DNA of 64,000 nt, taken from UHGV virus genome UHGV-1430452. One strand, given 5' to 3'. Origin of the DNA: a virus. The stretch's first letter is position 1, and every line of letters starts with the position of its first letter. The position numbers and the translations under genes were made by a program. The notes under the pieces are model-generated. The model was given only the letters and a program-made list of their open reading frames with translations. It did not search any database and was not told where the DNA came from. Positions 4,548 to 55,008 of the stretch are shown piece by piece.

Positions 4548-4577
4548 CTCATAAAAGGGCAAGAAAATTTCGTGAAT
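4548..4577 (-). promoter_or_regulatory. phage promoter-like motif (variant TTCACGAAAATTTTC...CCCTTTTATGAG) upstream of the tRNA
   Basis: Member of the ~35-copy motif family. It is part of a ~60-bp direct repeat with 4678-4740. Confidence 0.55.
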
Positions 4578-4677
4578 AGGGTGTGTACTTTTATATGTAA
4601 ATTTAGATAAGACCGGGAGCCATGAAGGACATCCCGGTACGTTCCAAAAATATAAATAGAAAGAAAATAGACCATCT

Positions 4678-4707
4678 CTCTATAAAAGGGTCAGAAATTT
4701 TCGTGAA
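4678..4707 (-). promoter_or_regulatory. phage promoter-like motif, duplicate of 4548-4577
   Basis: Near-identical repeat copy. It is followed on the minus strand by hairpin ACCGGGA/TCCCGGT (about 4611-4640). Confidence 0.5.
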
Positions 4708-4757
4708 TAGGGTGTGTACTTTTTATATGTAAATATCAATAAATGAGATCGTATGTA

Positions 4758-5195
4758 TTAATCTATAGCTTCAAAGTGTAGACCTTTCGTATTGTTGTAG
4801 AAATCGTAGTTACAGCATTTACTTATTGTGGCTTCGTTCATTCCTATAGCTTTACTGCATTCCCTGATAGATTCATAAACTTCTCCAGTTTCCACAATAC
4901 GAATCTTTTTATTGCATCGCCTCCTTTCCAAATTATCAATTCTATTGTTACGTTTGTTACCATCGATATAACCGACACATGGTTTTCCTGGTTCTTCATC
5001 AAGAAATGCGTCAGCCACTAGTCGACCAACGCGCTTTGTTATTCTTCTGCCGTTCTCCTTGACCTTCACTGTTTCGTAACCCTTGTTATCAAGGCATGGA
5101 GTAAGTATTCTTCCAGTCTTTGAGTTCCTAACTCTTCCTTCGCTGCTTACCTCATATCCTTCAGCAATATTACTATCGATCCATTGTTCTTCCAT
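4758..5195 (-). CDS. NUMOD4/HNH-like homing endonuclease paralog with degenerate HNH motif
   Basis: N-terminal W..I..GYEVSSEGRVRN (NUMOD4). Central VGYIDGNKRNNRIDNLE, where Tyr replaces the first His of the HNH_3 motif. C-terminal ETGEVYESIRECSKAIGMNEATISKC (NUMOD1-like HTH). Confidence 0.7.
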   Translation of the reverse strand: MEEQWIDSNIAEGYEVSSEGRVRNSKTGRILTPCLDNKGYETVKVKENGRRITKRVGRLVADAFLDEEPGKPCVGYIDGNKRNNRIDNLERRRCNKKIRIVETGEVYESIRECSKAIGMNEATISKCCNYDFYNNTKGLHFEAID

Positions 5196-5206
5196 CGATA
5201 ACCTCC

Positions 5207-5713
5207 TTATTCTACTTTCTCAAACGTGTAACCTCCGCAAGTTCTCAATCTTCCTCGTAAATACTGTGACAACATACTTTGACTTATCCCAAGCGTTTTA
5301 GCACATTCGTTCAAAGATTCATATACCTCTCCGTTCTCTTTACATCTAACTTTTATTCGATTACTTCTACCACCACCATATGGTTTCATCAATCCATCTC
5401 GTATGGCGTATTGCACATTTTCTTTTCTTGTACACCATTCAAGATTATCTGCGTGGTTATTTGTTTTATCTCCATCTTTGTGATGAACATCTAGACCTGG
5501 ATAAGGTCCGCCTAGAAATGCTTCGGCCACGAGAATATTAACTCTCTTTTGAAACCCATATCCGCATCTAGATAATGTTACAGTTTTATAACCTTTGCTG
5601 TCAGTTCCTTGTTTTAGAATTCTTCTAGTATCGATATTCCTAACCTTGCCAGTATTACTAACTTCATATTGCGAACCAAAATCATGCACCGCCTCCCATT
5701 CTTCAACTTTCAT
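5207..5713 (-). CDS. HNH homing endonuclease (NUMOD4 + HNH + NUMOD1-like HTH)
   Basis: QYEVSNTGKVRN, then VHHKDGDKTNNHADNLEW (intact HNH), then ENGEVYESLNECAKTLGISQSMLSQYL. Confidence 0.8.
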   Translation of the reverse strand: MKVEEWEAVHDFGSQYEVSNTGKVRNIDTRRILKQGTDSKGYKTVTLSRCGYGFQKRVNILVAEAFLGGPYPGLDVHHKDGDKTNNHADNLEWCTRKENVQYAIRDGLMKPYGGGRSNRIKVRCKENGEVYESLNECAKTLGISQSMLSQYLRGRLRTCGGYTFEKVE

Positions 5714-5920
5714 ATAGCCGTTCTCTTCTAACCATTGACAATAATCATAAAATCATCCTTCTTTCTTATACTCTTTCCATTGCTCCAATGGACTCTTTTC
5801 TTCGAAATCATCAAACTCGTCGTACTCGTCATACATAAACGCATTCTCCTTTCTAAATTTGTTTTAATATAAGTTCGAAAACAAAAGAAGAGGTTGAAAA
5901 TATCAATCTCATCTTTCTTT

Positions 5921-5948
5921 CTATAATAGGGCGTGTAATTTTCGCGAG
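5921..5948 (-). promoter_or_regulatory. phage promoter-like motif copy
   Basis: Plus strand ctataatagggcgtgtaattttcgcgag. It lies between a terminator (5979-6016) and a short leader/mini-ORF that precedes the HNH gene. Confidence 0.55.
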
Positions 5949-5978
5949 CCGACTTATCTTATATCAAGATTCGTAGAC

Positions 5979-6016
5979 AAAAAGAAGAGGCCGGGAATCA
6001 ATCCCGAAACCTCCTC
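5979..6016 (-). terminator. intrinsic terminator
   Basis: Minus strand: GAGG..CGGGATTGATTCCCG..CCTC hairpin followed by TTCTTTTT. It sits directly after the stop of 6023..6406. Confidence 0.7.
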
Positions 6017-6022
6017 ATTCTG

Positions 6023-6406
6023 TTAAACTTCTTCGTTTACTCCGATAGATACTACTCCTCCGATCAACTGATCTGGCTTCCAATCGTAAGCATCACATAA
6101 TTCTTTTCCAAAGTTACCGAGTTCTGATAATGGAACTCCGTCTGTCCAAATATCAAACCATTTATCTGGATTGTGACTCGATACTTCTGTTACCCCTTTC
6201 TGTAATAAAGTTTCTGGTACTTCCAGTTTCTTTAGTTTTGGATCAGGAATACTCGGAAGTTTATCCCAGTCAAAATCCTCAAATTTAGGTTTCTTTTTGG
6301 TTACAACGAATATAACTCCACCAGCTATCACTAGCCCGGTTCCAATAAGAATTTCCTTCTTGTGTTCCTTTACAAATATTTTTGCTTTCTCAAGTTTTTC
6401 TTTCAT
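6023..6406 (-). CDS. membrane-anchored protein, 127 aa
   Basis: N-terminal KAKIFVKEHKKEILIGTGLVIAGGVIFVV (TM). The N-terminus is paralogous to that of 21042..21398. Confidence 0.65.
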   Translation of the reverse strand: MKEKLEKAKIFVKEHKKEILIGTGLVIAGGVIFVVTKKKPKFEDFDWDKLPSIPDPKLKKLEVPETLLQKGVTEVSSHNPDKWFDIWTDGVPLSELGNFGKELCDAYDWKPDQLIGGVVSIGVNEEV

Positions 6407-53496: not shown

Positions 53497-53537
53497 TTTG
53501 AACTCCTCCTTATATTCGTATTTCATAATAGGGAATG

Positions 53538-53813
53538 TTATTTTTGCGACAGATCTACTCTAAGCATTACGTGTTTATCTTTTCGTAGCTTATATGCCTT
53601 ACCACTATCTATTTCTAAAAATAAATACGGTGCTGAGTCTGGATCTGAGCTGTCTACTTTCAGTGTGCCGATTGGCTTTTTTACTAAGAGTGTCGTTGCC
53701 ACAACTGCACCTATCAGCATACCTACTAATAAAAATAAAAGTTCCACTACGCTACTTCCTCCTTTCTTCAATAGAATTGTTTTATCGAAAACTCCCTCCC
53801 GGGAAATTTTCAC
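53538..53813 (-). CDS. membrane protein (start uncertain)
   Basis: TM VVELLFLLVGMLIGAVVATTLLV. An AAAGGAGG RBS suggests an internal GTG start (VELLF...), about 22 codons downstream of the ORF-track start. Confidence 0.5.
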   Translation of the reverse strand: MKISREGVFDKTILLKKGGSSVVELLFLLVGMLIGAVVATTLLVKKPIGTLKVDSSDPDSAPYLFLEIDSGKAYKLRKDKHVMLRVDLSQK

Positions 53814-53907
53814 TTTAGAATTTTAATATTGTTTCCTGTCACCTATGTACGGAATATCTATTCTAGATTAGAGTTTGTTTTAATCTAGGTTAAAGAAAAA
53901 AGAGAGC

Positions 53908-54144
53908 CTAAGCCCTCTTATCTGTCATAAAACTTGGTAACTGAAGTTCTGGTTTATAAGTCATTAACTCTGCTTCATATAGCCTCATGATAATAGCTAT
54001 CTCATCTTCATGAATACTTTTTATCAACTTAAAGACTTTATCATAATCAACATCTGATTTATTCTTCATTTGACAAATATAATCCACGAGTCTGGTATAC
54101 TTATCATCCGCAGTTCCTATCATTGCCGCAAATTTAACTTCCAT
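53908..54144 (-). CDS. hypothetical protein, 78 aa
   Basis: Monocistronic cassette (promoter motif 54179-54206, terminator at its stop). Confidence 0.6.
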   Translation of the reverse strand: MEVKFAAMIGTADDKYTRLVDYICQMKNKSDVDYDKVFKLIKSIHEDEIAIIMRLYEAELMTYKPELQLPSFMTDKRA

Positions 54145-54225
54145 AATTTATCCTCCTTAAATTTAAAGTTTTATGTTTCTATAAAGTAGTATGTATTTTT
54201 GGCGAAAAAGAAAAGAAGAGACCGA

Positions 54226-54426
54226 TTAGGCCTCCTCTTTAAATAACTCAGGGTATTTCTCCATCAGTTCTTTTCTGTCTCGTTCAATGTCTTTTTCTAT
54301 ATGCTCGATTTCTGCTTCCAATTTACCTGTGCTTTTACCTAAACGGTAACCCAGATAAGATCCTACAGCATAAACCAATCCGGCATATAAACCAAAACCT
54401 AAACCAGCTTTTAAATTAGCTTTCAT
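54226..54426 (-). CDS. small membrane protein, 66 aa
   Basis: TM LKAGLGFGLYAGLVYAVGSYLGY plus a charged helix. Promoter motif 54451-54478. Confidence 0.6.
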   Translation of the reverse strand: MKANLKAGLGFGLYAGLVYAVGSYLGYRLGKSTGKLEAEIEHIEKDIERDRKELMEKYPELFKEEA

Positions 54427-54468
54427 GATAGATCACTCCTATAATTTATTCTCATAATAGGCGTTGTT

Positions 54469-54657
54469 TTAGTCGCGATCATCAAACGGTACTTCTATGT
54501 TTTCAATCTCGTCAGAAATAATCTCCCCGTCACCGATAAGTAGTTCTCTTTTGTTTATTTGATTAACGCTAGTTCGATATATACCCTCAGCTACTGCTAG
54601 TCCGATAAATGTACTTACTCCCCAAAGAATTCCTTTGATTAATTTATTAGTATCCAT
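54469..54657 (-). CDS. small membrane protein, 62 aa
   Basis: Start set at MDTNKLIKGILWGVSTFIGLAVAEGIY (GAGGAAAA RBS). Confidence 0.5.
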   Translation of the reverse strand: MDTNKLIKGILWGVSTFIGLAVAEGIYRTSVNQINKRELLIGDGEIISDEIENIEVPFDDRD

Positions 54658-54737
54658 TTTGAATTTTCCTCTCATGATATATTCTCTATTGGAAATCAAA
54701 AGGAAGAGTATCTGCATAGATACCCGCCTTTTTGTTT

Positions 54738-54953
54738 TTAATTATTGCTTGTGGTCCAACCCATGTTGTTCTGTGTGAATGAGTTGTTAATGCCGTTGAT
54801 AGTTCTTACTCTATCCTCGTACAATGAATTGTCGCTAATGATGCTAACTCCGAATTTCCATTTGAAGTCTGGAATTTCGTTAGCTGCTTTCATAGCTTCA
54901 TCCCATTTCTCAAGGAAGACTTCTATCGCATATCCTCTCTCTACACTATCCAT
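54738..54953 (-). CDS. hypothetical protein, 71 aa
   Basis: Monocistronic cassette behind promoter motif 54981-55008. Confidence 0.6.
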   Translation of the reverse strand: MDSVERGYAIEVFLEKWDEAMKAANEIPDFKWKFGVSIISDNSLYEDRVRTINGINNSFTQNNMGWTTSNN

Positions 54954-54980
54954 GTCGTTACCCTCCTTTATAATAATTTT

Positions 54981-55008
54981 CTATAAAGGAGCGTGTAATT
55001 TTCGCGAA
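54981..55008 (-). promoter_or_regulatory. phage promoter-like motif copy (first of the cassette array)
   Basis: Plus strand ctataaaggagcgtgtaattttcgcgaa, 28 nt upstream of the ATG at 54953. Confidence 0.6.

Follow-up and report, generated by a model that had tools for sequence, protein, structure and literature searches.

The window analysed here, a stretch of 64,000 nucleotides (nt) from the UHGV virus genome UHGV-1430452, carries 35 copies of a motif of about 30 base pairs (bp) ahead of its early genes and encodes a 1056-amino-acid (aa) protein, a candidate single-chain RNA polymerase; the motif is probably a so far undescribed promoter of this polymerase. The window represents most of a siphophage-type genome of roughly at least 70 kilobases (kb), has a G+C content of 36.6% and shows essentially no nucleotide similarity to known phages, and its position 1 corresponds to a conserved physical end of related genomes. 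Along the minus strand, the end of the late region with its tail and lysis genes (63999-59017) comes first, and a serine integrase and a cI-like repressor lie on the plus strand. A sigma-A-type promoter candidate (55902-55873 on the minus strand; TTGACA-16-GATATT, or TTGACA-18-TATTCT with TG ahead) then stands upstream of a cro-like gene, a small open reading frame (ORF) and, as the last gene of the cro transcript, the gene of a 139-aa protein (55057..55476, minus strand). About 50 kb of early genes punctuated by the motif follow, ending in the genes for a methionine transfer RNA (tRNA-Met), an endonuclease, an exonuclease, the 1056-aa protein (305..3475, minus strand) and an 86-aa protein.

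All 35 copies align without gaps in a register of 31 nt on the minus strand. Each copy reported in a first-pass annotation of the window was present, at most 1-3 nt from where it had been placed, and the shared orientation claimed there holds for 35 of 35. A position weight matrix built from the copies scored them at 22.5-40.6 bits (17.9-39.7 bits in leave-one-out scoring) and found no further position at 8 bits or more on either strand of the 64 kb, which shows the earlier list to be complete and not over-called; first-order Markov shuffles gave 0.6 matches at 8 bits and 0.03 at 14 bits. The information content clusters in five blocks, C3-G4-C5-(G6)-A7, A13-C14-A15, C19-C20-T21, T23-T24-A25-T26 and the purines R27-R28-R29-A30, giving an asymmetric conserved core of CGCGA (3-7), ACA (13-15), CCT (19-21), TTAT (23-26) and purines (27-30). 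No RNA structure was detected in the 35 motif regions (mean z = +0.29, no copy below -2), and a hairpin of the N4 type is absent from all 35 copies, the sole hairpin being an element at the genome end.

Numbered along the minus strand, on which all of them lie, copy 1 (54978..55008, 34.7 bits; TTCGCGAAAATTACACGCTCCTTTATAGAAA) begins 48 nt past the stop codon of the 139-aa gene and is followed by a start codon 29 nt after its position 27. The next copies are 2 (54449..54479, 36.4 bits), 3 (54176..54206, 26.9 bits; directly behind a hairpin and T-run, terminator 54240-54212), 4 (53520..53550, 31.5 bits), 5 (53036..53066, 32.0 bits; behind terminator 53103-53069), 6 (52570..52600, 35.6 bits; behind terminator 52631-52607), 7 (51972..52002, 26.5 bits), 8 (51730..51760, 31.7 bits), 9 (51537..51567, 35.0 bits; behind terminator 51600-51578), 10 (51224..51254, 40.5 bits; likewise behind a terminator), 11 (50998..51028, 40.6 bits), 12 (50645..50675, 39.0 bits), 13 (50215..50245, 36.9 bits), 14 (49111..49141, 35.8 bits), 15 (48298..48328, 34.1 bits) and 16 (48032..48062, 37.0 bits), the last of these directly ahead of a tRNA-like gene whose 5' end falls at motif position 32-33. 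Further along are copies 17 (47008..47038, 26.3 bits), 18 (37275..37305, 32.9 bits; downstream of the primase-polymerase gene), 19 (36009..36039, 35.5 bits), 20 (33949..33979, 27.1 bits), 21 (27756..27786, 33.4 bits), 22 (24144..24174, 25.1 bits), 23 (22002..22032, 31.3 bits), 24 (21430..21460, 34.2 bits), 25 (20979..21009, 37.9 bits), 26 (18197..18227, 29.0 bits), 27 (17416..17446, 28.3 bits), 28 (10548..10578, 34.6 bits), 29 (10069..10099, 31.9 bits; behind terminator 10127-10107), 30 (9871..9901, 34.1 bits), 31 (7058..7088, 35.8 bits), 32 (6444..6474, 33.5 bits; behind terminator 6508-6488) and 33 (5918..5948, 37.7 bits), whose sequence CTCGCGAAAATTACACGCCCTATTATAGAAA is near a copy of Arthrobacter phage Mudcat, GTCGCGAAAATTACACGCCCTATAATAGAAG. 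The last two are atypical: copy 34 (4677..4707, 22.5 bits), with CACG for CGCG and TCT for ACA, belongs to the first of two tandem units before the polymerase operon, and copy 35 (4546..4576, 27.9 bits) stands ahead of the tRNA-Met-endonuclease-exonuclease-polymerase operon.

The placement rules of the first-pass annotation held in outline. The copies are intergenic or overlap the upstream ORF by no more than its last 12 nt, and in 24 of the 35 position 27 lies 17-49 nt ahead of a start codon preceded by a ribosome-binding site, a spacing earlier put at 20-40 nt before that site and an ATG. A position typically behind a terminator was overstated: about 12-14 of the 35 copies directly follow a strong hairpin and T-run. 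One copy does stand ahead of tRNA-Met (4438-4511) and one ahead of the tRNA-like gene (47958-48031), as described, and there is indeed no copy in 55009-64000, which holds the lysogeny, lysis and tail genes. Of two pairs reported as identical, copies 11 and 12 agree over 29 nt; copies 23 and 24 differ, in the last base only.

The same motif, co-oriented and confined to the early region, was found in every polymerase-bearing phage examined. Contig MT835485 has 24 copies on one strand, the first of them 5 nt after a homolog of the 139-aa gene, and ends short of the polymerase gene. Faecalibacterium phage FP_oengus has at least 15 copies with the consensus GACGCGAAAAAtnCAgnnTgCTTTATGGAgG, the first overlapping the stop codon of gp03 (its 139-aa homolog) and the last preceding the endonuclease-exonuclease-polymerase genes. 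Lactococcus phage P092 carries 10 copies of TTTTACAyACCCTATAATGArAG, which corresponds to the downstream half of the motif only, and a half-matrix derived from the window selects exactly those 10 copies. For motif discovery, a small Gibbs sampler was successful and k-mer enrichment uninformative. Lactococcus phage 1706 has 10 copies, Arthrobacter phage Mudcat 6-7 (TTCGCGwAAATTACAnGGGCTATAATGrrA), Rhodococcus phage ReqiPepy6 15, and Streptomyces phage Scap1 two, where its early region begins. A set of 80 IMG/VR loci, each built around a polymerase homolog, contains 250 copies in the 653 kb upstream of the polymerase gene and on its strand, one in the 404 kb downstream and five on the opposite strand. 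For 32 loci from bacterial assemblies, mostly Lachnospiraceae, the counts are 49 upstream and 16 downstream, with two loci contributing most of the 16. Most of these 80 viral and 32 bacterial-genome loci have one copy some 930-1200 nt ahead of the polymerase gene. The motif is present in polymerase-bearing phages of seven host-genus groups and at most of the 112 polymerase-homolog loci, and its 30 nt are kept at a polymerase protein identity of 38-48%. The late regions of the complete genomes examined in full (FP_oengus and Scap1) yielded no copy, nor was one found in MT835477, which has no polymerase, or a 35-kb stretch of SPbeta, the sample of polymerase-free sequence being small.

The perfect palindrome TTCGCGAA, earlier taken as a sign of a dimeric reader, occurs eight times in the window (0.89 expected) and is found in only 8 of the 35 copies. 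It is not kept in relatives, FP_oengus having GACGCGAAA, ReqiPepy6 and Scap1 TCGCA, and P092 no such box, and the conserved core is an asymmetric CGCGAAA; the dimer reading was rejected on this pattern of conservation.

The contig MT835495 (69.8 kb) opens with two motif copies and a polymerase operon (79% identical) and continues with late genes. It has a higher G+C content (45%) and no homolog of the primase-polymerase or of the 139-aa protein, and it may be a mosaic or partly host-derived contig.

The earlier judgement that the motif is not sigma-A-like was borne out by its 14-nt spacing, by the mostly missing A at -11 and by the lack of enrichment of sigma-70-type sites. A TTGACA -35 element at 17 +/- 1 bp from the -10 element is absent; upstream conservation is limited to two boxes, CGCGA at 13 bp (14 counted from TTCGCG) and ACA at 5 bp from the hexamer of positions 21-26. 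The A at -11 (A22, with T26 as reference) is present in 17 of the 35 window copies (49%) and in 61 of 197 distinct copies in relatives (31%), that is, the key A of the -10-like hexamer is missing in 51-69% of copies. The alternative register for A-11 with T-7 fits 0 of 35 and 4 of 197 copies, and no other register gives both bases. The early regions of the window and P092 show no enrichment of sigma-70-type consensus sites (48 against 55 and 32 against 41 expected), and intrinsic terminators are enriched in the early region (23 against 8.3 and 14 against 5.2 expected). At positions 21-26 the lytic relatives (P092, 1706, Mudcat, ReqiPepy6 and Scap1) have a perfect or near-perfect TATAAT or TATAGT, and the temperate gut relatives mostly TTTTAT or CTTTAT; host polymerase may fire these promoters in lytic members, and temperate members may keep them silent in lysogens.

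Conservation runs on through four purines (27-30) directly after TTAT, where transcription would start. The tRNA-like genes bear on this point, their 5' ends falling at motif position 29 in FP_oengus, 32-33 in the window and 34 in P092, of which only the first clashes with a start 6-8 nt after the hexamer. Since the FP_oengus gene begins at position 29 and has a complete acceptor stem, the start should lie within 3 nt of T26. Among all loci, four cases have a tRNA close enough to a motif copy to inform on the start.

The 1056-aa protein matches phrog_4291 ('RNA-dependent RNA polymerase', E=0) and contains the catalytic DxDGD loop of two-barrel polymerases, two N-terminal helix-turn-helix units and one C-terminal unit resembling sigma region 4 (HTH/Sigma70_r4 matches, residues 1016-1054). 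When the window protein is aligned to homologs from four further host genera, LSGADFDGD is unchanged in five proteins that share 41-48% identity with it, and the two N-terminal and one C-terminal helix-turn-helix units are conserved. The family has been linked to Pfam RdRP by HHpred and described as a signature gene of a supercluster of Actinobacteria and Firmicutes phages, its polymerase activity being predicted only (bioRxiv 10.1101/842583). The name 'YonO-like', given to the protein in the first-pass annotation, is loose, an hhalign comparison with SPbeta YonO giving a probability of 0.8% and no detectable similarity. An AlphaFold model from a shallow alignment (75-92% identity) was poor (predicted local distance difference test (pLDDT) score 57, core below 50); Foldseek with this low-confidence model returned no match at E<0.8, and no sequence relative of the protein was found in the PDB.

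We compared two candidate readers, the 1056-aa protein and the 139-aa protein, both put forward earlier. The hosts of the motif-bearing phages span two phyla, so that a conserved reader encoded by the phage is needed, and the polymerase is the signature DNA-binding gene of the group; its co-occurrence with the motif is phyletically complete and makes it the best-supported candidate, which we consider reasonably likely to be the reader. In P092, the sole lineage without the CGCG box, the recognition helix of the second helix-turn-helix unit reads SPGSVTNYA as against xES(T/S)(V/I)Rxx in four aligned phages that have CGC, and a helix of the ESTVRSLL type is present in 42 of 80 gut loci, those in which the pattern search reached the second unit. 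This covariation of helix and box, which represents one evolutionary event, is suggestive of the polymerase as reader. The 139-aa protein (phrog_11237) belongs to a family of 7912 matches (1790 clusters at 50% identity) with no Pfam match and no annotation, and its earlier label 'RinA/ArpU-like' had to be dropped, only sporadic weak matches to phrog_248 being found. A profile of the family detected no homolog in P092, Scap1, Mudcat or contig MT835495 (1706 and ReqiPepy6 lay outside the scan), in all of which the motif or its downstream half is present, and MT835477, in which motif and polymerase are both missing, has a 40%-identical homolog flanked by its terminase and portal genes. Being missing where the motif is present and present where it is missing, the 139-aa protein cannot be the general reader. 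Its gene tracks the temperate lifestyle and is always the last gene before the first motif copy, which follows it at once in three temperate phages; a role as starter after induction in temperate members is possible.

Taken together, we think it fairly likely that the 35 copies serve as early and middle promoters within a transcription system specific to the phage, with its own 1056-aa polymerase as their direct reader. Helix-turn-helix units of the polymerase would contact CGCGA (3-7) and ACA (13-15), about one helical turn apart, and the catalytic core would melt the invariant TTAT (23-26) and initiate 1-3 nt further on, at purines 27-30. Each promoter would serve a short gene unit, often closed by a hairpin and T-run, and the last would drive the tRNA-endonuclease-exonuclease-polymerase operon; with this operon behind the motif, the proposed system would therefore be self-amplifying. 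The first polymerase molecules may arrive with the virion, and in temperate members after induction the first polymerase may be made with the aid of the 139-aa product of the cro operon. Lytic relatives have the motif ahead of even their first early gene, an early use that virion delivery could explain. The GenBank record EU081845 labels the polymerase homolog of phage 1706 (orf75) 'structural protein', a label repeated in the ReqiPepy6 annotation and placed by EU081845 on two other genes in the non-structural region. Should the label stand for detection in virions, the enzyme would enter the cell along with the DNA, much like the virion polymerases of phi14:2 and P23-45, which have early promoters of their own. 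A wider version of the proposal, speculative and rather unlikely as a whole, would extend to the entire group of Actinobacteria and Firmicutes siphophages: a virion polymerase would ride in on, or bind, a promoter-like half-site in the conserved hairpin at the right genome end, transcribe all early genes from the 30-bp promoters without host polymerase and reach the promoter-less late genes only across the joined cos after circularisation, the 139-aa protein starting the loop after induction in temperate members. If true, these phages would form a third, independent lineage with virion RNA polymerases, one that is common in the human gut, and would provide the first helix-turn-helix-mediated promoter recognition by a minimal two-barrel enzyme.

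The most serious alternative, which we rate as possible and clearly less probable than direct reading, is that the copies are middle-type promoters used by host polymerase with sigma-A, which a phage factor bound at the CGCGAAA and ACA blocks would recruit or re-target. In the MotA-dependent middle promoters of T4, the -35 element gives way to a conserved box near -30, some 11-13 bp ahead of a -10-like hexamer, and the motif shares this geometry, its CGCGA box falling at -30 to -26 if T26 is -7 and its hexamer 21-26 being -10-like and perfect in the lytic relatives. In temperate members the 139-aa protein could do the recruiting, or the large protein could do so with its helix-turn-helix domains, and, as with YonO, the phage polymerase would serve the late genes only; its gene is indeed the last of the early region and adjoins the late genes, as in SPbeta. 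The division of the early region into short units by enriched intrinsic terminators fits host polymerase as well, as do the place of the 139-aa gene at the end of a sigma-A-driven cro transcript with the first motif copy next to it in three temperate phages, and the weak match of one 139-aa homolog to a 'transcriptional activator' family. T4 middle promoters, however, have a strict TAnnnT, from which 51-69% of the motif copies deviate by lacking A-11, with no register restoring A-11 and T-7 together; no MotA or AsiA homolog was noticed, and the candidate 139-aa activator is not universal, since P092, Scap1 and Mudcat have the motif without it and MT835477 has it without the motif. Moreover, an activator made from the genome would come too late for lytic relatives whose first early gene lies behind the motif, no copies in the late region or other obvious targets of the phage polymerase were found, and the tRNA-like gene of FP_oengus starts at motif position 29.

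Two further explanations fared much worse. That the upstream half is a scattered repressor operator which silences early genes in lysogens, any promoter activity being due to the hexamer beside it, seems very improbable to us: many co-oriented intergenic copies in a temperate phage do recall the SPbeta repressor MrpR, which binds a 15-bp repeat in about ten promoter regions (PMC10516654), as well as the L5 stoperators. Unlike such repressor sites, the motif is kept equally in the lytic P092, 1706, Mudcat, Scap1 and ReqiPepy6, in which no repressor or integrase was seen in the regions examined, and is missing from the phage's own switch region, the cI-cro region (55477-56052) containing a different triple repeat, ATGCrAAwAAATT. 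Its conservation also extends beyond a binding box into the melting and initiation part, and no MrpR-like protein was noticed. An SPbeta analogy with a MrpR operator, drawn from a polymerase match to phrog_4210, was rejected on the same grounds of presence in lytic relatives and absence from the switch region. Equally hard to credit is an action of the motif in RNA, as a processing site or translation leader, or its being an ordinary host sigma-A promoter shared by ancestry. The distance of 17-49 nt to start codons and the TATAAT-like hexamer would suit these options, yet about 40% of the copies lie behind a terminator, so that their upstream part would be untranscribed, and copies stand ahead of tRNA genes and form no RNA structure. 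An ordinary sigma-A promoter is difficult to reconcile with the lack of a -35 element, the 14-nt spacer and the mostly missing A-11, and ancestry alone would not keep a 30-nt intergenic motif at 38-48% polymerase identity.

Several points weigh against direct reading by the phage polymerase. Binding, start sites and polymerase activity of the 1056-aa protein are predictions, its polymerase fold is unconfirmed at the quality of the present model, and similarity to YonO is undetectable. YonO, the only characterised distant analogue, transcribes late genes, and the late region of the window is without a motif copy. Because the polymerase gene comes last in the motif-driven region and is itself behind a motif, a source of the first enzyme is called for, and the 'structural protein' of orf75 is a database label. 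The many promoter-terminator pairs suggest an enzyme sensitive to terminators, like host polymerase, and the TATAAT or TATAGT of the lytic relatives could be read by host sigma-A. Finally, the covariation of helix and box comes from one lineage, and the start-site argument hangs on one tRNA-like gene.

Functionally, the set of motif copies looks like the promoters of phage polymerases such as those of T7, N4, phi14:2 or P23-45. The promoters of T7, T3 and SP6 are likewise compact, contiguous and strand-specific elements of about 25-30 bp, present in many copies, with a TTAT or TATA tract directly before a purine-rich start; the SP6 promoter CACTATAGAAG may be set beside the motif CCTTTATAGAAAG. 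The T7-like enzymes differ in being right-hand, Pol I-like and unrelated polymerases, and the start site within the motif is one that we infer. Closer in kind are gp66 of phi14:2 and gp96 of P23-45, both virion enzymes, and the non-virion gp64 of P23-45, which likewise combine a DFDGD-type loop with a phage-specific motif upstream of early genes. For the P23-45 polymerases, the motif is found only in relatives that encode the enzyme, and the same phyletic argument was accepted there (PMC10770324). For the crAss-like phi14:2, virion delivery is reported to allow early use (bioRxiv 10.1101/2020.03.07.982082). The present enzyme belongs to a different protein family with no sequence or fold match to these polymerases (the fold search having used a low-confidence model), is about 1000 aa long with three fused helix-turn-helix units and would act on an unrelated promoter sequence, and its phages infect Firmicutes and Actinobacteria, many of them being temperate.

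SPbeta YonO is likewise a single-chain polymerase with a distant relationship to multisubunit enzymes, and it is encoded just upstream of late genes in the same orientation. The YonO study described the late genes as a single operon transcribed from one promoter and left the promoter sequence undefined. Differences from the present system are the lack of detectable protein similarity and the absence of the full motif from the SPbeta stretch examined. The SPbeta segment between the published YonO primer-extension primers contains TCATTTATGAGGG, with TTCATTTATGAAGG 155 nt upstream (at about 15440 and 15600, minus strand, of locus L093), both with a TTATGAG core, which may loosely link the motif to YonO. 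About 300 nt downstream there is also a separate stretch of 11 nt, TTACATACCCT, that matches the P092 half-motif. An exact-match scan of genome contigs, aimed at placing the YonO start coordinate 2225998 (strain 168) on the SPbeta sequence, gave no match, and the lead TTTATGAGGG is unconfirmed.

Literature searches with motif strings and for promoters of Arthrobacter and 1706-type phages returned no description of the motif, the primary papers on 1706 and ReqiPepy6 lying outside the search. The finding bears on how minimal single-chain relatives of cellular RNA polymerases find their promoters: it pairs a sharply delimited probable promoter, some 30 bp long and made of three blocks, with an enzyme that has three predicted DNA-binding units. 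The pair of motif and polymerase is kept in hundreds of phages of gut Clostridia, lactococci and actinobacteria, and the promoter question can be tested directly with one protein and one oligonucleotide. The motif can also serve as a marker for annotating early genes in an abundant group of gut phages; the pair is a candidate orthogonal expression system for Gram-positive bacteria and a possible new case of virion-delivered transcription.

The neighbours of the polymerase gene are conserved as well. The 86-aa protein (42..302, minus strand), a possible cofactor, is always encoded directly after the polymerase; tblastn found homologs in MT835495 and FP_oengus, and a gene occupies the same position in P092, Scap1, Mudcat, ReqiPepy6 and 1706. 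The exonuclease (3479-4105, minus strand) and endonuclease (4120-4410, minus strand) genes are co-operonic with the polymerase gene, with conserved synteny and with matches of the pair to phrog_3953 and phrog_93. The leader of the operon holds tRNA-Met (4438..4511, minus strand; ARAGORN and Rfam, 69 bits), an arrangement shared with relatives. A tRNA regularly occupies this leader, also in loci L012, L027, L053, L054, L061, L062, L072, L077, L079 and L118, its identity being Met, Ile(tat) or, in L072, a tRNA with a tta anticodon that ARAGORN calls tRNA-Stop, a possible ochre suppressor. Upstream of the operon, at 4577-4760 on the minus strand, is a tandem duplication of about 131 bp, each unit consisting of ATTTACATATAAAA(A)GTACACACCCTA and then an atypical motif copy; the upstream portion of the unit (ACACACCCTATTCAC) is similar to the half-motif of P092 type, and a weak TTTACA-17/18-TATTCA arrangement overlaps it.

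The tRNA-like gene of the window (47958..48031, minus strand) has a shortened anticodon arm and is called 'tRNA-???' by ARAGORN, with 62 bits against the Rfam tRNA model; it has counterparts in FP_oengus (2936-3005 in L005) and P092 (23612-23678 and 24000-24066 in L009), and ReqiPepy6 has one at 11207-11279 in L128 ('tRNA-OTHER'). These genes share the shortened anticodon arm and score 39-62 bits with the Rfam tRNA model; ARAGORN assigns a two-base 'anticodon' to those of the window and FP_oengus and leaves the P092 genes uncalled. In at least three distant phages they stand directly behind a motif copy, and the gene looks like a conserved non-coding RNA of the phage group.

At the physical right end of the genome, positions 1..40 on the minus strand form a hairpin of a G-run, a loop and a C-run, the loop and 3' arm of which resemble motif positions 1-21. 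The same conserved hairpin is found at the ends of L013, L017, L042, L056 and other loci, at those of Mudcat, Scap1 and P092, and at 31660-31720 of FP_oengus (L005), with the loop TCkCGAAAAnnACA and an ending nnCAT|CGCGCCGGTCTTT at the cos junction. Its loop and 3' arm score up to 22.9 bits against motif positions 1-21 (background 95th percentile, 7.7); downstream of the polymerase gene, 42 of 73 loci have a best match above that percentile, in most of them inside the end hairpin. The hairpin could be a binding site of the polymerase, a terminator or part of cos.

In the switch region, the three ATGCrAAwAAATT copies lie at 55810-55957, in the cI-cro intergenic region and the start of cro, and are probably the real operators of the 198-aa repressor (56053-56649), which has two helix-turn-helix units. 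The early region of the window contains three phrog_2152 paralogs on the minus strand (44029-44967, 47042-47869 and 49330-50106), assigned to the DUF6353 family in the FP_oengus annotation, and FP_oengus likewise has three. The whole FP_oengus genome has 45 coding-strand occurrences of GATATTT (about 6 expected), often at or just before start codons and twice just past the cos junction. In Mudcat, four copies of GTGGCCA(A/T) at 40165-40268 occupy the gap two genes upstream of the endonuclease-exonuclease-polymerase operon and may represent another protein-binding array.

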